37,309 nucleotides of DNA from contig PCRM01000039.1 of the NCBI GenBank assembly GCA_002771215.1, positions 1 to 37,309 on the forward strand, given 5' to 3'. Source of the stretch: Candidatus Nealsonbacteria bacterium CG23_combo_of_CG06-09_8_20_14_all_40_13 (GTDB lineage Bacteria > Patescibacteriota > UBA1384 > UBA12157_A > GCA-002773005). Positions 794 through 37,198 of the stretch are shown one piece after another. Made by a program: the position numbers and the translations under genes. The notes beneath the pieces are model-generated. The model did no database searches. It was not told where the DNA came from and was given only the letters and a program-made list of their open reading frames with translations. The number at the start of each line of letters is the position of its first letter. Positions within the stretch are counted from its first letter, which is position 1.

Positions 794-1456
794 ATGAATC
801 TTATAAAACTTCAAAATGTCTCTAAAATTTATCAGCACGGTAAATTAGAAATGGTCGCTTTAAAAGATATAACCATCACTGTCCAAAAAGGACAATTTTT
901 AGCCATTATGGGGCCTTCAGGCAGCGGCAAATCGACTTTAATGCATATTATTGGTCTTTTAGACAGACCCACCTCTGGCAGTTATTTTTTAGAAGGAAAA
1001 GAAATCTCACTTAGAACTTCAGATAAAGTTTTAGCTCGTCTTCGGCAGGAAAAATTTGGCTTTGTTTTTCAAACTTTCAATCTTTTGCCTAGATTACGGG
1101 CGCTAGATCAAGTGATATTACCGACTATTTATGCCCGTGCCAAAAATCGCTGGCAGAAAGCAGAAAAAGTTTTAGAAAAAGTAGGACTGAAAGAACGTAT
1201 AAATCATTGTCCCTCGGAACTGTCAGGAGGAGAACAACAGCGAGTAGCTATTGCCCGGGCGCTGGTCAACAGTCCAGAGATTATTTTGGCTGATGAGCCC
1301 ACAGGTAATTTGGATAGCAAATCTGGCGAGGAGATTTTGAAAATTTTAATAGAATTAAACAAAGAGGGGAAAACGGTTATCTTAGTTACCCACGATCCTA
1401 ATTTGGCCAATCAAGCCGAGAGAATAATTAAATTGAAAGATGGGAGAATAGTGTGA
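794..1456 (+). CDS. ABC transporter ATP-binding protein (MacB/LolD-type)
   Basis: Walker A GPSGSGKST, signature LSGGEQQRVAIARAL, Walker B IILADEPTGNLD, H-loop VTHD. Confidence 0.9.
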   Translation: MNLIKLQNVSKIYQHGKLEMVALKDITITVQKGQFLAIMGPSGSGKSTLMHIIGLLDRPTSGSYFLEGKEISLRTSDKVLARLRQEKFGFVFQTFNLLPRLRALDQVILPTIYARAKNRWQKAEKVLEKVGLKERINHCPSELSGGEQQRVAIARALVNSPEIILADEPTGNLDSKSGEEILKILIELNKEGKTVILVTHDPNLANQAERIIKLKDGRIV

Positions 1457-2676
1457 TTGGGGAAGTTTTTAAAATGGCTTTGTATTCCATCTGGAATAAT
1501 AAAGCTAGAAGTTTTTTAACTATGCTGGGGGTAATCATCGGTATTGCCTCTGTCGCGACCTTGATGGCTATTGGCGAGGGACTCAAGCAAGATGTTTCTA
1601 AAACTGTCAAAGATTTAGGTTCCAACATTGTAATTGTTTTATCCGGCGATATTCCCATCGGAGAAGGTCAAGGTATGACATCAATGGGCAATCCGGCCTC
1701 TTTAATTTCCGGCGATATTTTGAAATACCAGGATGTTGAGGAAATTAGAAAAATTGAGGGCGTGGAGGCGGTTTCCCCCATGGCCATGGTGCCGGGTTCT
1801 TTCAAAAAAGACGGCAAAGTTTCCACTCCAATTATTGCCGGGCTGGAGCCATCGATACGTAAAATTATGACTGGTTTCAAATTATCCCGGGGCCGCTTTA
1901 TTGAAGATACTGACAAGGATAAAAATGTCGTGGTGGTGGGCGATAAAGTTAGAAAACAACTTTTTGACGATAGGGAAGACATTTTGGGCGAGAAAATAAT
2001 GTTTGATAAAACAGAATTTGAGATCATCGGTCAACTTTCTCCTCCTACATCTTCTTCTCTTTTCTCCTCTGATTTTGAAACCCTTTCCGCCATTCCTTTC
2101 CAGCAGGCCAAAAAATTCACTCAAAATCAGGAAAAGATTCTGCGTATTGGCATCAAAGTCAATGATAGTTATAAGGTTGATGATATTGTGCCCAAAATTA
2201 AGGAAAATATGCTTTTACGCCACCCCAAAGAGGATTTTACTGTTGTTACTCAAGAAGACCTCCTGGGTATGCTTAACACTATTGTCAATCTTTTAACGAC
2301 AGCTGTGGCTGCCATTGCCTCTATTTCATTAATTGTTGGTGGTATCGGCATAATGAATATAATGTTAGTTTCGGTCACCGAAAGAACGCGCGAAATTGGT
2401 TTAAGAAAAGCAGTTGGCGCCACATCTGGAGCAATTCTATGGCAGTTTTTAATCGAAGCGGTGGCTATCTCACTTTTGGGGGGCACAATTGGAATTTTGT
2501 TTTCTTTCCTCGGCACTTCAATAGTGGCGGCTAAAACCGCTATAAAACCAGAGGTCACTTTATCTGCTATTTTACTAGCCGCTGGTGTTTGTATTGGAGT
2601 TGGAATTATTTTTGGTCTTGCTCCAGCTATCCGGGCTGCCCGCAAAGACCCAATTGAAGCGTTAAGGTACGAATAA
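1453..2676 (+). CDS. ABC transporter permease, FtsX/MacB-like
   Basis: N-terminal TM SFLTMLGVIIGIASV, a large extracytoplasmic domain, then a C-terminal FtsX-type 3-TM bundle (TERTREIGLRKAVGA...). GTG 1453 overlaps the ATPase stop (GTGTGA); ATG 1474 is an alternative start. Confidence 0.85.
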   Translation: MIGEVFKMALYSIWNNKARSFLTMLGVIIGIASVATLMAIGEGLKQDVSKTVKDLGSNIVIVLSGDIPIGEGQGMTSMGNPASLISGDILKYQDVEEIRKIEGVEAVSPMAMVPGSFKKDGKVSTPIIAGLEPSIRKIMTGFKLSRGRFIEDTDKDKNVVVVGDKVRKQLFDDREDILGEKIMFDKTEFEIIGQLSPPTSSSLFSSDFETLSAIPFQQAKKFTQNQEKILRIGIKVNDSYKVDDIVPKIKENMLLRHPKEDFTVVTQEDLLGMLNTIVNLLTTAVAAIASISLIVGGIGIMNIMLVSVTERTREIGLRKAVGATSGAILWQFLIEAVAISLLGGTIGILFSFLGTSIVAAKTAIKPEVTLSAILLAAGVCIGVGIIFGLAPAIRAARKDPIEALRYE

Positions 2677-2760: not shown

Positions 2761-2803
2761 CTGCCTTCGCAGCACTGTCGCCTTTGGCGACAAAGTGATT
2801 TTT
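2761..2803. terminator. Hairpin pair between the convergent permease and groEL genes (possible bidirectional terminator)
   Basis: CTGC-cttc-GCAG (2761-2772) and TGTCGCC-ttt-GGCGACA (2776-2792), followed by a T-run on the plus strand. Sits 20-50 nt past the groEL stop. Confidence 0.35.
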
Positions 2804-2813
2804 GAATTATATA

Positions 2814-4564
<1,751 letters not shown>

Positions 4565-10605: not shown

Positions 10606-10760
10606 ATTAAAATTAGTATTTTTATTATAGCGCCTATCGGACGATATATTAAATTATTAAATTTATTATAGCGCCGAATACTGCGCTTTATTAAATTACT
10701 AAATTTATTATAGCGTTGAATACTGCGCTTTATTAAATTATTAAATTTATTATAGCAAAG
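10606..10760. repeat. 42-bp tandem repeat: two full units, a truncated third and a degenerate leading copy
   Basis: Units at 10648-10689 and 10690-10731 differ at 3 positions. 10732-10757 is truncated and 10606-10647 is degenerate. Each unit contains ttattatag and the small palindrome AGCGC-n8-GCGCT. Confidence 0.85.
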
Positions 10761-12934: not shown

Positions 12935-14923
12935 TTAGATTATAAATTGAACAATTAAAAGCGCAATGATGTTTAAAATTTTAATCATTGGGTTGATGGC
13001 CGGGCCGGCCGTGTCTTTGTAGGGGTCACCAACCGTGTCGCCGGTCACGGCGGCTTGGTGGGTAAAGGAGCCCTTGCCGCCCAATTTGCCCTCCTCAATG
13101 TATTTTTTGGCGTTGTCCCAGGCGGCGCCGCCGGAAGTCATAGAAATGGCGACAAAAATGCCGGTGATAATGGAGCCGACCAAAAGGCCACCCAGCGCTT
13201 CGGGACCAAGTAGCCAGCCAACTAAAATCGGCGAGAGTACCGGCAGCAGCGCCGGCAAAATCATTTCTTTCTGTGCCGCCGCCGTCACGATAGCTACACA
13301 ACGGCTGTAATCAGGTTTGGCCGTGCCTTCCATAATGCCTTTGAGTTCTTTAAACTGGCGGCGCACTTCCACCACCACCGCGCCGGCCGCTTTGCCGACA
13401 GCCGACATCGCTTTGGAGCCAAAATAGTAGGGCAAAAGACCGCCGATAAATAAGCCAACCAAAACATAAGGGTCGTTCAATTGAAAATTGAAAATTGAAA
13501 ATTGAAAATTCTTTAATTCTTCTGTGTAGACGGAAAAAAGCACCAAGGCGGCCAGACCAGCTGAACCAATCGCGTAGCCCTTGGTCGTGGCTTTAGTAGT
13601 GTTGCCAACGGCGTCTAACAGATCCAAATTACTGCGCACTTGAGCGGGTAAATTAGCCATTTCACAAATGCCGGCGGCGTTGTCGGCAACCGGCCCGTAA
13701 GCATCAATAGCGATAATAATGCCCATCACCGAAAGCATGGCAAAAGCGGCCATTGCCACCCCAAAAATGCCGGCTAAAAGATAGGAAAAAATTACGCCGG
13801 CGCAAATGATTAAAACGGGCCCAGCCGTTGAAGACATAGAGACAGCCAATCCGGTAATAATGTTAGTGCCATGGCCGGTTTGTGAGGCCTGGGCGATAGA
13901 CAAAACCGGTCGGTATTTTTTAGAAGTGAAATAGTCGGTAATTAAAACCAAAAGCCAAGTCACGGCCAAACCGATTAAAGCGGCATAAAATAAATTCGAG
14001 TTTGGTGAGATATCTTTATTTTTTAATATCCACCAAAAGCCAGCAGCCGACAAAATTGCCGAGACAATTAAACCCTTGTAAAATCCAAACATAATATTTT
14101 TGGCGCCTTGAGGAATACTAATAAACCATGAGCCGACAAGGCAAGCTAAAATAGCTATGGCGCCCAAACCAAGCGGCAAAGCAATCATCAGTTGTGTTTT
14201 GAAAATAATTTCTGCCAAAAGCATGGCGGCCACGGTGGTCACCACATAAGTTTCAAATAAATCGGCGGCCATGCCGGCGCAATCACCCACGTTGTCACCC
14301 ACGTTGTCGGCAATCACCGCCGGGTTGCGCGGGTCGTCTTCGGGAATGCCCGCTTCAACTTTGCCAACTAAATCCGCGCCGACATCGGCGGCTTTGGTAA
14401 AAATGCCGCCGCCCAATCGGGCAAAAATGGAAATGAGCGAACCGCCGAAACCCAAGCCAACCAAGGCGTATAGGTTGTGGGTCCATTGATAAAACATTGT
14501 GACAGCCAGCAGTGCCAAGCCGGCCACCAAAAAGCCAGTTACCTGGCCCGATTTGGCGGCAATGAAAAAAGCTTTCTGCTGGCTGCCAACCGCCGCTTGC
14601 GCGCAGCGCACATTAGCTCTGGTGGCGACAGTCATGCCAATTGCGCCGGCTAAAGCCGATAAAAATCCGCCCAGCAAAAATCCCAAAGCAGTGATTAATC
14701 CTAACTTCCACCAAATAATCGCGGCTAAAACTATGGCGATGGCGGCTACAACTTGGTACTGTCTTTTAAGATAAGCCGAAGCGCCTTCCTGAATAGCTTT
14801 GGCTATCTCCTGCATTTTTGCGTTGCCGGCCGGTTGGCGCATAATCCAGAAAATTAGATAAAGACCATAAAGGATGCCAAGAGCCGAAGCACCCAAAGCA
14901 AACCAAAGAAAAGTTTTTTCCAT
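12935..14923 (-). CDS. hppA: Membrane-bound proton-translocating pyrophosphatase (K+-independent signature)
   Basis: [32 protein letters not shown] (Lys at the position that is Ala in K+-dependent enzymes), [18 protein letters not shown]; 662 aa, multi-TM. Confidence 0.95.
13481..13508. repeat. (ATTGAAA)4 heptanucleotide tandem repeat inside the hppA coding sequence
   Basis: attgaaa x4 read directly. Encodes [10 protein letters not shown] in a loop between TM helices. Confidence 0.9.
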
Positions 14924-31538: not shown

Positions 31539-31670
31539 AAATTCCCACGGGACGCACAGCCCTGTTGTTCCAGTGATTATCGACATTGTTGTAGTTCACA
31601 TCCGCAAGTCCACCGTTGTCAGAGTTACCACCATTGAGACGGTTTGAAGCGTCCTTGAAAATTTATTTGT
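31539..31670 (-). repeat. DGR template repeat (TR)
   Basis: Non-coding copy of 32005-32136 (offset 466). On the minus strand it carries seven AAC codons in the VR frame, all of which differ in the VR. The 5' boundary is fuzzy and may extend to about 31680. Confidence 0.85.
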
Positions 31671-31917: not shown

Positions 31918-31946
31918 GGCGGGGAACCTAATGCAGGTTCCCCGCC
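31918..31946 (-). terminator. G+C-rich 11-bp hairpin downstream of the target gene/VR (terminator and/or DGR-associated stem-loop)
   Basis: GGCGGGGAACC-taatgca-GGTTCCCCGCC, followed by ATTTTTG on the minus strand. It lies about 50-75 nt past the stop codon. Confidence 0.5.
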
Positions 31947-31993: not shown

Positions 31994-32932
31994 CTAAGCG
32001 TCCAAAACTCCCACGGGACGCACAGCCCTGTAGCCCCAGTGATTATCGACATTGAAGTAGAACGCATCCGCAAGAAAACCGCCGCCAGAGCTACCACCAA
32101 AGAGACGGCTCGAAGCGCCCCTGAAAAACTCCTCGAACCAGACCCAAGTATTGGTCCGGCCGTCTTTTTTGCGGGGTATCCACATGTAAAGCTGTGGGAT
32201 GACGTTGGCCTCGATGGTCTGCTCTAGGCGGAAGGTTACCCCTTCGAACTCCGGACGGGCCTCGAGCGCTGGTCTGATGTGTTCATCCCATTCTGAGGAT
32301 GAGATGTTAAACCGACTGCTTGGCGGACCGGCGTCGGTGTGGGCAATTTTGCCTTCGGTACGAAGAGCTTCAATCACTCCACCAAGGAAGCCTTCGTCGT
32401 TGGCAAACATCTGTCGACCGCCATCGTAAGCCGGCTTGCAGCGGGTGTCGATGAGGACGGTGGTGCCTTCGAAGCGAACTTCTTTGACTATTTCCAACTC
32501 GCCAGCGACGTTACGGCGCTTGATGGAGCCGTCCGCCACCTTCTGCCAGAACCATGACTCGGGTTTGATCTTCCAGCCGGGAAATTTTGATCCATGCGTG
32601 AAGACAATCCTGGGTAAAAAGTGGGGCTTCAATCCCAGCTTGGCCCATTGCATGACGCGCTTTTCGCCAAACTGTTTCAGTGTTGCCGCAAACTGTGACA
32701 AGTCGAATGTCTCGTTGAAGAAAGCGCCGAGAGCATTATTCTCGGCTTGGACCAACTGATCAAGCCAGTTGATTTTCGAACGAATCAGCACATTCCGCAA
32801 ACCTTCTGATAGTTGTGCTGAATGTCCAATCCAGAACAATGCATCTTCCTCAGAGAGATCATCGGGTAAAATTTCCGTAATCCTACCGATAATCCTTCTT
32901 TGGGTTTTTAAGGTGAGGGTGGTCCGAGACAT
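31994..32932 (-). CDS. DGR variable (target) protein with C-terminal VR; likely C-type-lectin-fold ligand-binding domain; no signal peptide seen
   Basis: 312-aa ORF with GGAGG SD. The C-terminal ...WVWFEEFFRGASSRLFGGSSGGGFLADAFYFNVDNHWGYRAVRPVGVLDA is encoded by the VR. Visibly more G+C-rich than its neighbours. Confidence 0.8.
   Translation of the reverse strand: MSRTTLTLKTQRRIIGRITEILPDDLSEEDALFWIGHSAQLSEGLRNVLIRSKINWLDQLVQAENNALGAFFNETFDLSQFAATLKQFGEKRVMQWAKLGLKPHFLPRIVFTHGSKFPGWKIKPESWFWQKVADGSIKRRNVAGELEIVKEVRFEGTTVLIDTRCKPAYDGGRQMFANDEGFLGGVIEALRTEGKIAHTDAGPPSSRFNISSSEWDEHIRPALEARPEFEGVTFRLEQTIEANVIPQLYMWIPRKKDGRTNTWVWFEEFFRGASSRLFGGSSGGGFLADAFYFNVDNHWGYRAVRPVGVLDA
32005..32136 (-). 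repeat. DGR variable repeat (VR)
   Basis: Near-identical to the TR. 22 mismatches in the core, 19 at TR adenines (minus-strand sense). An identical 22-nt block CAGGGCTGTGCGTCCCGTGGGA lies at the 3' end. Confidence 0.85.
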
Positions 32933-34341: not shown

Positions 34342-34412
34342 AGTGATTTTTTTAATTTTTTCAATTTTGCATTTTACATTATCATTTTGAGATTTGCATT
34401 TTGCACTTTGAA
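34342..34412. repeat. 7-nt-periodic T/A-tract array in the rfbC-rfbB spacer
   Basis: tcaattttgcattttacattatcattttgagatttgcattttgcactttgaatt. Shares CAAAATGCAAA (minus-strand sense) with the groES-groEL spacer array. Confidence 0.6.
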
Positions 34413-34982
34413 TTATCGCCATTTATATCCAATCTCCGGGCTATTATAAGGCAAGCGTTCTTCGTCTGGGCTTTCGGCATTATACGGCTCTGTCGTATGA
34501 TAAAAAAGCAAAACCGGCTCTTTTGACAAAACTTGATAGCCGTGGGCGATGCCTTTAGGAATCAGGACTAATTTATAATTATTTTCGCCGGCTAAAATAA
34601 CTTGAGTTTTTTTAAAAGTCAGTGAATTTTTTCTTAAGTCATATAGGACTATTTTTGCTTTACCGGTAGCAACAAACCAGAGGTCATCTTGTTTGTGATG
34701 AAAATGAAAACCTTTGATTGTTCCTTGATAAGCGACCGTAAAAGTAGTTTGACCAAATTTTTGAAGTAGTTTATCGTCTTGACGTAAAACTTCAACGAGA
34801 AAACCAGGCTTTATTTTGGCGGCGAGAATACCCCGCCTCTTGGGGCGAGGATGAAAGCCGCCGAAAGAACTCGCCCGAAGGGATACCCCGTCCCTTGGGA
34901 CGGGGTAGTTCATTTTCGTCTTTCGAACATCGGGTATATCACGATGGATTTTTAATTTTTTGATTTTTACACCTTCAATCAT
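34413..34982 (-). CDS. rfbC: dTDP-4-dehydrorhamnose 3,5-epimerase carrying a 39-codon in-frame insertion
   Basis: Cupin core GFHFHHKQDDLWFV...IPKGIAHGY. Removing residues 21-59 restores IPDVRGFLVEVLR, which matches the usual RmlC DxRG strand. Confidence 0.8.
   Translation of the reverse strand: MIEGVKIKKLKIHRDIPDVRKTKMNYPVPRDGVSLRASSFGGFHPRPKRRGILAAKIKPGFLVEVLRQDDKLLQKFGQTTFTVAYQGTIKGFHFHHKQDDLWFVATGKAKIVLYDLRKNSLTFKKTQVILAGENNYKLVLIPKGIAHGYQVLSKEPVLLFYHTTEPYNAESPDEERLPYNSPEIGYKWR
34806..34922. repeat. 117-nt G+C-rich palindromic element inserted in frame in rfbC
   Basis: Minus strand: TACCCCGTCCC-aa-GGGACGGGGTA (11-bp stem), GGGCGAG...CTCGCCC, GGCGGC...GCCGCC, ending ...GGCGGGGTA. No stop codon in the rfbC frame. 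Confidence 0.75.
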
Positions 34983-35025: not shown

Positions 35026-35406
35026 TCATTTATTCAAGTTAATTATCCGTTTAAATCTTACTCCTTTGCTTGTGAAATTAATGAGTAATCCTAATTTTAA
35101 TTTCATACTTTTTAGATAAGAAAATATTTGTTCTATATCTCTTCTGAAAAAATGGTCACCGACTTTCAATTCAACTGCAATGGCATTATCAATTAGAAAA
35201 TCTAAAATATATGTGTCAAAAACTTTGTTGTTTATTTTCAGCGACACCCGAACTTGACTCTTGAAATTTTTTTGTTTTTGTTTCAAAATTTCCGCTAATG
35301 CTTTTTGATATGTGCTTTCTCTTAATCCGGGCCCGAGAGTGTTAAAAACTTCATAACAACAACCGATTATTTCATAACTTTCCTTTTTGTAAATGATTTT
35401 TGCCAT
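35026..35406 (-). CDS. GxxExxY family protein (PD-(D/E)XK-like)
   Basis: 126 aa; ESYEIIGCCYEVFNTLGPGLRESTYQKAL contains G-L-R-E-S-T-Y, the family's eponymous motif; ...AVELK... Confidence 0.7.
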   Translation of the reverse strand: MAKIIYKKESYEIIGCCYEVFNTLGPGLRESTYQKALAEILKQKQKNFKSQVRVSLKINNKVFDTYILDFLIDNAIAVELKVGDHFFRRDIEQIFSYLKSMKLKLGLLINFTSKGVRFKRIINLNK

Positions 35407-35482: not shown

Positions 35483-36271
35483 TTAGTAAATTCGTAGTCC
35501 CTTCTTCCTTGCCCAATAAACTGCGGTTTTAAATAAACTATCAAAGGTGCCGGCATCCGACCAAAAACCTTCCAGTGTCGCCCAAGCTAATTTGCCGGCT
35601 TTAACGTAGCAATTATTTACATCAGTTATTTCCAGCTCGCCGCGGGCTGATGGTTTACATTTTCGAATAAAATCAAAAACCTTGTTGTCATAGATGTAAA
35701 GCCCAGTGACTGCGAAATTTGATTTTGGCTTTTTGGGCTTTTCCTCGATTTTGACAATTTTATGCGTTTCCGGAGTTATCTTGTTTTGAGTTTTTCGTTT
35801 TAAGTTTTGAGTTTGAAACACCGGCACGCCAAAGCGCTGGGGGTCGGTTACTTCTTTCAAAAAAACCATTGCTCCCTTCCCCGAAGGGGAGCCTTTGGCT
35901 TTAAATTTTTTTACTGGTTTAGAAATATCGGCATCAGTACAATTGTCGCCTAAAATAACGGTGACTGGCCCGCCCTCAGCAAAATCTTCACAAAGTGATA
36001 AGGCCTGAGCAATACCGCCCTCTTTTTCCTGATATGTGTATTCTAAATGTTTAAGCCCTAATTTTTTGCCATTACCCAAAACTCTGATATAGTCCCCTGC
36101 ATAAGGGCCGCCTGTCACAATAATTACATCTTTAATTCCAGCTTTAACGAGGGTTTGAATCGGATAAAATACCATAGGGGAATCAAAAATCGGCAATAGG
36201 TGTTTTGATGTAGCATAGGTAAGAGGATATAGCCTTGTCCCTAAACCACCAGCAAGTACTACTCCCTTCAT
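35483..36271 (-). CDS. rfbA: Glucose-1-phosphate thymidylyltransferase (short form) with in-frame repeat insertion
   Basis: MKGVVLAGGLGTRLYPLT, EEKPKKPKSNFAVTGLYIYD. The segment QTQNLKRKTQNK is encoded by the 32-nt repeat copy at 35783-35814. Confidence 0.85.
   Translation of the reverse strand: MKGVVLAGGLGTRLYPLTYATSKHLLPIFDSPMVFYPIQTLVKAGIKDVIIVTGGPYAGDYIRVLGNGKKLGLKHLEYTYQEKEGGIAQALSLCEDFAEGGPVTVILGDNCTDADISKPVKKFKAKGSPSGKGAMVFLKEVTDPQRFGVPVFQTQNLKRKTQNKITPETHKIVKIEEKPKKPKSNFAVTGLYIYDNKVFDFIRKCKPSARGELEITDVNNCYVKAGKLAWATLEGFWSDAGTFDSLFKTAVYWARKKGLRIY
35783..35814. repeat. 32-nt perfect inverted copy of 2680-2711, inside rfbA
   Basis: gttttgagtttttcgttttaagttttgagttt equals the reverse complement of aaactcaaaacttaaaacgaaaaactcaaaac. 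Confidence 0.9.
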
Positions 36272-37113
36272 TATATTAACTCCTTTCTAATGGCTAAATA
36301 GAAATTGTGTTTCCTATTTAGATAATATTGGGCATTTAGATAAAGCCAATCAAAAATTCTCAAAGCCTGTTTATTGCCTCTATATCGCAAAGCAAAATGA
36401 TTGCTTTTTTTAATATTGCGCGTCAATTTAGTTCGATTTAAATTTAGGTACCTGATTAGGAATTTTTGAATATTTGATAACAAACCCTTAGAACCAACAA
36501 TTTGAAAAAGAAGTGAACGCTTTTTTTTATCCCACAATATACTGCCATCTCCTTCGAATACCCCAAGAATGAAGGATTTAATAATTTGTTCGTCATTATC
36601 TCTTTTTAATATTTCTGGAAAATTCTCCTTCGTAGATTTATTGGTTTTTATACCAATCTCCTCAATCCTTCTAACTAATTTAGCGCTGGTTATCAAAAGG
36701 GCGATTTGAAAATATGTTTTTCTTGTTTTTTTTAGTTGAGTTTTCATCTTAATTAATTTTCCTGTGTAGAATAAAAGCTTTCTAATTTTCTGTAAAACAT
36801 CCTTATCTTTAATTGAAACTTTAATTCCAAATCTGGGCGATTTATCGTTCCCCCTCACAAACCCATCACTAACAAGCCAACCTAAAACCCAAGCATTTTC
36901 ACTATTAATCTGATCGAAATAATTTTCATTGACATGATATTTTCTTTGGCCCAGCTTTCGAGTTTTGTCTTTTGCTTTGAGTCCATATTGTCTCATTCTA
37001 TGTGAAATCACCCATTGAGAAATTTTTAATTCTTTTGCGATTAAATCTTGCGACAGATTTTTAATAAAATATCTGTCAATTATAAAAGTTTTTGAAATTT
37101 GGTATTTTCTCAT
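36271..37113 (-). CDS. LAGLIDADG-family homing-endonuclease-like protein with N-terminal HTH
   Basis: Two LAGLIDADG motifs, LGWLVSDGFV and LGVFEGDGSI, about 100 aa apart. N-terminal IAKELKISQWVISHRMRQYGL is HTH-like. ATG 37113; the stop forms a TAATG overlap with the rfbA start. Confidence 0.75.
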   Translation of the reverse strand: MRKYQISKTFIIDRYFIKNLSQDLIAKELKISQWVISHRMRQYGLKAKDKTRKLGQRKYHVNENYFDQINSENAWVLGWLVSDGFVRGNDKSPRFGIKVSIKDKDVLQKIRKLLFYTGKLIKMKTQLKKTRKTYFQIALLITSAKLVRRIEEIGIKTNKSTKENFPEILKRDNDEQIIKSFILGVFEGDGSILWDKKKRSLLFQIVGSKGLLSNIQKFLIRYLNLNRTKLTRNIKKSNHFALRYRGNKQALRIFDWLYLNAQYYLNRKHNFYLAIRKELI

Positions 37114-37198
37114 CAATGCATCCCAATCAAAATGACGCCTTTCATATTTTCTCCTGTAGATTGAGGATATTTTATAATAGCCAAACTGTCAAATATAA

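Follow-up and report, generated by a model that had tools for sequence, protein, structure and literature searches.

How does the coding sequence of a conserved enzyme come to share 32 consecutive bases with an intergenic spacer 33 kb away? The question is raised by a 37,309-nt stretch of DNA from a Patescibacteria-type genome (the whole stretch is referred to here as the window), in which the rfbA gene and the spacer between an ABC permease gene (macB) and groEL carry the same short array of 7-nt units in inverted orientation. The explanation that we favour, and to which we give roughly an even chance, is recent ectopic gene conversion between two arrays that both existed beforehand, probably from rfbA into the spacer. 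Its main rival is functional constraint; copying by a mobile mini-element, chance convergence, a switch by inversion and an assembly artefact follow in order of decreasing likelihood. Fetched loci and contigs are given below as L-numbers, and proteins as P-numbers.

Position and nature of the 32-nt match

The plus-strand sequence at 35783-35814 (GTTTTGAGTTTTTCGTTTTAAGTTTTGAGTTT) is the exact reverse complement of 2680-2711, as an initial annotation of this DNA had stated. The match is exactly 32 nt in length, and the flanking bases are unlike at both ends. The same annotation placed one copy in coding sequence, and it is indeed read as (Q)TQNLKRKTQN within an intact open reading frame (ORF). 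The following features bear directly on the match.

35483-36271, minus strand: rfbA, encoding a short-form glucose-1-phosphate thymidylyltransferase of the rmlA type; 262-aa ORF, intact, Pfam NTP_transferase E=2e-53
35783-35814, minus strand: rfbA copy of the 32-mer; sense AAACTC AAAACTT AAAACGA AAAACTC AAAAC, 4.6 units, encoding Q153-N163
35762-35815, minus strand: RfbA loop extension Q153-H170, made of the array and an ITPETH tail; 14-15 residues beyond insert-free orthologues and PDB 3hl3/4ecm
1453-2676, plus strand: FtsX/MacB-type ABC permease gene (macB), with a heptamer array after the stop codon here and in L173 and L174
2680-2711, plus strand: intergenic copy of the 32-mer; A-rich on the plus strand, starting 3 nt after the macB stop codon
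2679-2732, plus strand: full intergenic heptamer array of 7.9 units; the shared 32-mer is its start, and is unpaired in the predicted fold of the macB 3' untranslated region (UTR)
2776-2792, plus strand: terminator-like hairpin TGTCGCC-TTT-GGCGACA, with a T-rich tail on the plus strand
2814-4478, minus strand: groEL, which converges on macB; the 32-mer would appear as its U-rich complement in any read-through transcript

In nature the shared sequence is a simple-sequence array, a short one with 4.6 units of the heptanucleotide AAAACNN. The 7-nt periodicity noticed at first inspection was borne out by Tandem Repeats Finder, which returned 4.6 period-7 copies at 35783-35814 and 7.9 at 2679-2732, and by autocorrelation across the window, where a signal was present at lag 7 only. 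The units run head to tail, as in the heptanucleotide array class. In all, Tandem Repeats Finder located six arrays of period 7 across the 37 kb. Four of them occupy UTRs or spacers and the other two lie within ORFs; of the six, the rfbA and macB-spacer arrays are the only AAAAC-type ones. The presence of several arrays per genome, mainly in spacers near start and stop codons, extends to relatives, and heptanucleotide arrays are abundant both in this Patescibacteria-type genome and in many other phyla.

A CRISPR spacer or protospacer was considered, 32 nt being a usual length for a spacer, and rejected, as no repeats flank 2680-2711, no CRISPR-like array lies in the window, and viral contigs gave 0 matches. 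A search with Rfam covariance models returned a tRNA as the sole match in the window, and nothing credible at 2450-2950 at E up to 1.

A misassembly or sequencing error, against which the initial annotation had advised a check, was rejected. The rfbA copy is unchanged in L001-L006, which comprise an NCBI metagenome-assembled genome and ENA and JGI metagenome contigs, and the spacer copy is unchanged in the independent assemblies L008-L017, so that the respective 32-mer is intact in 16 of the 16 fetched loci. The identical RfbA protein (262 aa) is indexed in 53 assembly blocks and the MacB permease in 30, produced by various assemblers. Nothing was found in favour of an artefact as the source of the two copies, which is, in our judgement, of negligible probability.

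Age of the arrays and a proposed exchange between them

The initial annotation stated that thymidylyltransferases of this family usually have a short turn where the array lies, and took the repeat for an in-frame insertion. Comparison with homologues supports the short turn in most of the family and a lineage-specific in-frame extension here. In an alignment of 29 relatives, there are mostly 3-6 residues between RFGVPVF and KIIKIEEKP, against 18 in the window protein (QTQNLKRKTQNKITPETH), and the excess over solved short-form RmlA structures (3hl3/4ecm) is 15 residues. An AlphaFold2 model (pLDDT 88.4), a step also proposed at the outset, places the extension at a hairpin tip between strands 148-154 and 170-177, with lowered confidence there. 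The array is thus an in-frame part of an extension that is predicted to occupy a solvent-exposed beta-hairpin tip. It is tolerated in rfbA because three 7-nt units make 21 nt, which is seven codons.

A recent insertion into rfbA, as first proposed, does not agree with the distribution of the extension. Nine orthologues (65-77% identity) have K/Q/N-rich inserts of 15-40 residues at the same site, ending in a conserved ITP(E/Q/K)TH, and inspection at the DNA level found the insert to be a heptamer array in five of the five examined (L007, L063, L064, L066 and L068). The flavours of array include AAAACTN (L007), AAATCTC/AAACCTC (L063), AAAGATC/AAAAAGN (L064) and perfect (AAAAATC)x4 (L066). Unit number also varies: the near-identical proteins P0011 and P0013 differ by 7 aa, corresponding to exactly 21 nt or three units, and L116 has a doubled array. 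No variation in array length was seen within the window's own species among the fetched assemblies.

In L068 (10415-10561), and also in L069, the heptamer array of rfbA is interrupted by a 33-nt insert containing two small hairpins (ATTCGCCCAAGCGACGAAATTCTAAAGAATTTC), by comparison with L066, which is near-identical in other respects.

The comparison with L007 separates the age of the insert from the preservation of its array. L007 shares 31 of the 32 array bases with the window, in a gene that is 72% identical overall at the DNA level and encodes an RfbA of 76% (BLASTP) or 78% (codon alignment) identity. Among array codons for identical residues, none of nine shows a synonymous difference, compared with 105 of 190 elsewhere in the gene (P=7e-4; P=3e-4 when the test is restricted to K/Q/N/T/L codons). 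The ITPETH tail differs between the two genes at five of seven codons, and the insert is therefore as old as the gene split. This synonymous divergence of the tail also rules out that the complete insert passed recently by horizontal transfer between the lineages of the window and of L007. Judged from these codon comparisons, the rfbA insert is old as a whole, with the array part alone frozen. The AAAACT core takes up ten of the 11 third-codon positions of the array, whereas most of the free seventh bases are at non-synonymous positions; core maintenance and protein constraint together account for the near identity of the window and L007 arrays.

The history of gain and loss is less clear. In a neighbour-joining tree from which the loop columns were excluded, insert-bearing and insert-free orthologues are interleaved, and the insert-free L299 (loop DKKR) is no more distant from the window than L007. 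The tree is star-like and poorly resolved, and no conclusion on gains or losses was therefore drawn from it.

The intergenic site has a history of its own. The closest fetched permease relatives, L173 (88% identity) and L174 (77%), carry an A-rich heptamer array of different sequence 1-6 nt past the stop codon. A complementary T-rich array then follows, just before the next gene, which is not groEL. The L173 spacer, GAAAACTT AAAACTA AAAATTA AAATGTT AAATC, is homologous to the window array and differs from it at units 1, 3 and 4. These comparisons show that a separate array of the same flavour has long been present after the macB stop codon, and that the intergenic site carried an array before the event too. 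Three further contigs, L087, L091 and L098, were rejected as macB-spacer orthologues; the extended flank is similar but the context is Planctomycete-like. In the window, the terminator-like hairpin at 2776-2792 places the array within the predicted macB 3' UTR, and the end of the 32-mer is 102 nt from the groEL stop codon.

The substitution that links the two window loci is in unit 3, which is AAAACGA in both copies. The corresponding unit is AAAACTA in the L063 rfbA gene, in the L173 spacer and in 51 of 55 unrelated members of the wider array family (see below), and AAAACCA in L007. A scan of JGI metagenome contigs found the G variant in two contexts only, these being the window's own loci (L074, and L108/L112). 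As a derived G is present at both loci and absent from relatives, transfer after the substitution arose is the best explanation. Units 1 and 4 of the window spacer are unlike those of L173 and are in the state conserved in rfbA orthologues, which makes rfbA the more parsimonious donor.

We therefore favour recent ectopic gene conversion, probably in the direction from rfbA to spacer. In the lineage of this genome, a short-tract, homology-driven and non-reciprocal transfer would have made the two arrays identical, by ectopic gene conversion or by template switching between the inverted arrays. The transfer would have been confined to the stretch where the arrays already resembled each other, with rfbA most probably the donor; the tract ends where array similarity ends, as expected for homology-driven conversion. 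Frequent short-tract templated correction, comprising slippage and conversion among an array's own units and occasionally between arrays, would explain an AAAAC(T) core frozen at synonymous sites, and would let the array flavours drift in concert. The initial annotation was right in this respect that the copies appear to be related by recent copying, as the shared derived G indicates; what we propose is a homogenization of two older arrays, and not the arrival of a mini-element in a gene.

Several points weigh against this reading. The conversion event is reconstructed and was not observed. The relatives compared at one locus cannot be matched, genome by genome, with those compared at the other, so that parsimony is the basis for both direction and timing. 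For RecA-type exchange, a tract of 32 bases is close to the lower limit, and the interleaved, poorly resolved tree means that the history of the insert is not simple. Finally, synonymous freezing and the positional retention of arrays in several genomes could reflect selection for function, and selection for identity would leave the same pattern as copying.

The last of these points is the substance of the main rival, functional constraint, in which one trans-acting partner would read both copies and thereby keep them identical. In one variant, an RNA-binding protein or small RNA would recognize the A-rich array in both the rfbA mRNA and the macB 3' UTR; in the other, the U-rich complement carried on a read-through groEL 3' UTR would pair over 32 nt with the rfbA mRNA and regulate rfbA. 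Consistent with such a partner, the array codons are frozen at synonymous sites, and arrays are kept just after the macB stop codon in three genomes and also occupy intercistronic leaders. A-rich and U-rich arrays pair in cis elsewhere in the window and in relatives, and the macB 3' UTR copy is predicted to be unpaired. As groEL and rfbA are both on the minus strand, an RNA that reads through from groEL would be antisense to the rfbA mRNA over 32 nt without a mismatch. The minus strand yielded no terminator-like site in the interval from groEL to the array, and the shared derived G would then be a compensatory change. However, the sole terminator-like hairpin is oriented for macB; if it serves macB, the array is transcribed in the same sense as rfbA, and those two transcripts would not pair. 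In addition, macB is not adjacent to groEL in relatives, no Rfam family matches, and the single informative substitution provides no independent co-variation. We consider functional constraint rather unlikely, although it deserves more weight than any of the other alternatives.

The inverted orientation of the copies raises the further prospect of a recombination switch, in which the 32-bp copies would flip the intervening 33 kb and split rfbA at the loop, giving on/off variation of a surface-sugar pathway. The copies are perfect and inverted, and one lies inside a surface-polysaccharide gene. Against this, all fetched contigs (L001-L017, L074, L108 and L112) have native junctions only, albeit that assemblies would under-report a minority arrangement, and no recombinase is associated. 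A switch of this type seems to us highly improbable.

The wider array family and its known counterparts

How far the match exceeds what such arrays produce by themselves depends on how common they are. A 24-nt core (CTCAAAACTTAAAACNAAAAACTC) matches 58 JGI metagenome contigs and 22 species-representative genomes, the latter from hosts that include Planctomycetota, Bacteroidota, Ignavibacteria, Acidobacteriota, Cyanobacteria, Saccharibacteria and Thiodiazotropha, amongst others. Across 55 distinct contexts, a conserved block extends from 2-3 bases before the core to 6 after it, which is the extent of the window match, with random flanks. A control sequence with the two middle units swapped was found in 23 genomes, compared with 22 for the native order, and with the same geometry. 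A single universally conserved 33-mer, to which 80 cross-phylum matches had pointed, was accordingly rejected, as the permuted control is equally frequent and the unit order is not special. We interpret the matches as a generic (AAAACTN)~5 family, and not as one conserved sequence; a size of about five units and sharply defined ends are frequent among these arrays. In this light, the initial claim of a match far beyond what low complexity would produce was overstated, given that near-identical (AAAACTN)n arrays occur in dozens of unrelated genomes.

The contexts of the family are mixed: arrays lie just upstream of start codons, downstream of stop codons, beside an inverted partner, or in frame in genes. 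The in-frame arrays use two reading frames (KTQNLKLKTQN or NSKLKTKNSKL), and their hosts encode LpxK, a Zn-dehydrogenase (Zn-ADH), a dihydroorotase-like protein, GatA, a Mur ligase and a 2-oxoacid:ferredoxin oxidoreductase. The loop that the array encodes in GatA is of equal length in relatives down to 70% identity, with the 7-nt periodicity kept (the L178 array reads GAAACTG TAAACTA CAAACTA CAAACTA AAAACTT). The arrays of the Zn-dehydrogenase and of H+-PPase likewise add little or no length in comparison with homologues. In Thiodiazotropha, a multi-copy composite has a G+C hairpin core with a T-rich array on one side and an A-rich array on the other; the family array forms one of these arms, and one genome has at least eight copies of one variant.

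Further arrays were noted in passing. The L073 LpxK ORF has two array-encoded segments, TINLKLKTKNY and TTQNLKLKTQNY, one degenerate and one perfect. An (AAAGAGC)x5 array lies in frame inside the pyruvate phosphate dikinase ORF, a housekeeping gene, of a related genome (L064, 8189-8234). On the Planctomycete-like contig L087 (5100-5420), heptamer arrays of the types AACACTG/AACTCAG, AGCGGAT and AAAACTN stand side by side, from which it follows that many flavours coexist in one genome.

This distribution led us to weigh a very small dispersed or mobile repeat of ~32-33 nt, (A)AACTC AAAACTN AAAACNA AAAACTC AAAAC(T), copied into new sites including ORFs, of which both window copies would be insertions. 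Such an element would account for the spread of the 24-nt core over many phyla, for the 55 contexts that share the block ends of the window match amid unrelated flanks, for the in-frame occurrence in two reading frames in six kinds of enzyme gene and for the multiple copies in one Thiodiazotropha genome. However, relatives already had arrays at both window loci, and the rfbA insert exceeds the unit in length and includes a tail that is both old and diverged. The flanks (AATAAATA and CACAAC; GTGTTTC and AAGATA) contain neither terminal inverted repeats nor a target duplication, and the sequence is a direct array. There are two copies in the window, with the G variant confined to the two contexts already mentioned; the permuted unit order is as frequent as the native one; and GatA, H+-PPase and Zn-ADH are hardly lengthened, if at all, by their arrays. 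The empty rfbA site of L299 (GTG TTT GAC AAG AAG AGA AAA ATC) differs from the filled site by 42-45 nt, including the old ITPETH tail, and not by the 32-33 nt of the element. We regard insertion of a mobile repeat as unlikely.

The same abundance bears on chance convergence of two independent arrays of one flavour. None of 100 dinucleotide shuffles gave a match with <=3 mismatches to the 32-mer, but such a null makes the test too easy where the sequence is an array of low complexity. With heptamer arrays as the null, we roughly estimate the match at ~14-16 bits, or ~1e-4 to 1e-5 per array pair. In favour of chance, the family is highly constrained (AAAACT and a free seventh base), and near-identical arrays arise in unrelated genomes, with the control order equally common. 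Yet four free seventh bases, the register, the length and the rare T-to-G variant must all agree, G is found only in this genome's two copies among the 55 contexts, and the two loci hold the sole AAAAC-type arrays in the window. Chance therefore seems very improbable, though somewhat less so than the switch.

A broader and more speculative interpretation, which we put forward as a doubtful one, is that five-unit (AAAACTN) arrays are cross-phylum, nucleotide-constrained modules of ~32 nt whose sequence is written or copied from one locus to another, conserved enzymes receiving it in frame, with a core that would be held constant at synonymous sites by templated correction or by a shared RNA- or DNA-binding partner. 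The window pair with its private G would then be a recent instance, and the groEL-side complement could be an antisense partner of the rfbA mRNA.

A literature search with the literal repeat sequence gave no match. The closest description is that of direct repeats of the heptamer TAACTGA in marine Beggiatoaceae, in Cyanobacteria and in Bacteroidetes (MacGregor 2015, PMC4679880), which occur in sets of 2-6 units, mostly intergenic near start or stop codons and occasionally in ORFs. No mechanism is known for their scatter over unrelated phyla, and they were proposed to be bound by a post-transcriptional factor (PMC4679880). The arrays described here resemble them in forming short sets of a 7-nt unit that contains AACT. 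They differ in the unit itself (AAAACNN, with a free seventh base) and in the Patescibacteria-type host, and also in that an array lies in frame in the middle of a conserved enzyme, frozen at synonymous sites, with an exact copy at a second locus.

Heptanucleotides are the most abundant class of long simple-sequence repeat in prokaryotes according to Mrazek et al. (2007), as related in PMC4679880. Unlike long simple-sequence repeats, the arrays here are short (~5 units) and imperfect, and their length is constant within the species as far as was seen. Heterocystous cyanobacteria have heptamers of the short tandemly repeated repetitive (STRR) type. With both of these classes the present arrays share tandem 7-nt units and the occurrence of many arrays per genome, and the 21-nt difference between P0011 and P0013 may be a length change of the slippage type.

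Rickettsia palindromic elements, reportedly described by Ogata and colleagues in 2000 as inserted in frame in protein-coding genes, offer a parallel, in that the surface of a conserved protein tolerates an in-frame repeat of non-coding type. Those elements are 100-150 nt in length, palindromic, mobile and present in many copies, whereas the 32-mer is a tandem array without palindromic structure and with two copies. The small dispersed repeats of Nostoc (21-27 nt), which Elhai and colleagues are said to have reported in 2008, are hairpin-forming, of high copy number and nested in tandem heptameric repeats. The 33-nt hairpin insert within the L068 rfbA array fits such nesting; the 32-mer, unlike those repeats, is the heptameric array itself. 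A unit length that is not a multiple of 3, inside a surface-polysaccharide gene, also recalls phase-variable contingency loci. We rejected that assignment, as there are only 4.6 units, which are imperfect, and the 262-aa protein is identical in all of the assemblies found, with no sign of frameshifting. To our knowledge, neither a heptamer array that is synonymously frozen in a conserved enzyme with an exact copy elsewhere, nor the AAAACTN family, has been described.

Other features of the window and significance

Further arrays, and a second insert in rfbA, were located in the window.

4464-4495 and 4511-4562 (span 4464-4562), minus strand: two more heptamer arrays, in the groES-groEL spacer
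34364-34414, minus strand: heptamer array that takes up the spacer between the rfbC and rfbB cistrons, in the 5' leader of rfbB
13479-13510, minus strand: perfect (AATTGAA)x4.6 array, in frame within the H+-pyrophosphatase ORF 12935-14923
35879-35899, minus strand: second in-frame insert in RfbA, A125-G131 (7 aa, around SPSGKG), overlapping a G+C hairpin at 35871-35892; boundary ambiguous owing to short flanking repeats

In the groEL sense, the A-rich array of the groES-groEL spacer pairs with the complementary U-rich array, and the resulting hairpin, long but imperfect, immediately precedes the start of groEL. The arrays that follow macB in L173 and L174 are arranged in the same A-rich and T-rich order. 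The array-encoded loop of the H+-pyrophosphatase, a conserved membrane pump, is no longer than in solved homologues. The SPSGKG insert amounts to 7 aa relative to all 28 orthologues and is private to this species; it is also the least confident part of the RfbA model (pLDDT <50 at residues 127-129). The G+C hairpin described there in the initial annotation exists and encodes SPSGKG, but its sequence had been transcribed one letter too long: the correct length is 22 nt (GCTCCCTTCCCCGAAGGGGAGC), and one of the eight pairs of the stem is G-T on the plus strand.

The neighbouring rfbC ORF (34413-34982) contains, at 34812-34910 on the minus strand, a 99-nt (33-residue) G+C-rich in-frame insert (NYPVPRDGVSLRASSFGGFHPRPKRRGILAAKI) that is missing from RfbC relatives at 76% identity and folds into two strong hairpins (z = -3.3). 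The NCBI gene call for rfbC begins inside the insert. The insert is closer to a Rickettsia palindromic element, or to an in-frame palindromic element, than the heptamer array is. A scan for its hairpin pattern was uninformative, giving >120 matches in all kinds of genomes, near chance expectation.

Upstream of rfbA, a free-standing LAGLIDADG-type ORF (36271-37116, minus strand) has a stop codon that overlaps the rfbA start, and a homologue (64% identical) is likewise found upstream of an insert-bearing rfbA in L068/L069. Such a homologue accompanies two of six insert-bearing rfbA contexts and none of ~45 insert-free ones, the insert-free loci being more distant; a connection between this ORF and the loop insert is only a lead. 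A PD-(D/E)XK (PDDEXK_3) ORF (35026-35406, minus strand) lies between rfbA and rfbC, and in L064 and L299 rfbA is followed directly by rfbC.

The template/variable repeat pair of a diversity-generating retroelement is present at 31539-31661 and 32005-32127, with 19 of 22 mismatches at adenines of the 31539-31661 copy (minus-strand reading). bAvd and reverse-transcriptase genes are found in the equivalent loci of L001/L002/L004, and a 12-bp G+C hairpin lies at 31918-31946. In addition, a 42-nt A+T-rich tandem repeat (10610-10756; 3.5 copies, 86% matches) occupies a spacer between two minus-strand ORFs.

Among the simple repeats of bacteria, heptanucleotide arrays rank with the most frequent, though they are poorly understood. 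The locus described here is a clean and dated example: an old array in a housekeeping enzyme, with a frozen core and, 33 kb away on a second, older array, an exact copy that shares a private substitution. It also illustrates that proteins of the candidate phyla radiation can carry repeat-encoded loop extensions, which should not be mistaken for functional domains or assembly errors. Two explanations are indicated by the locus, namely templated exchange of short tracts among arrays and a partner that recognizes the sequence, and either would explain the concerted behaviour of these repeats.

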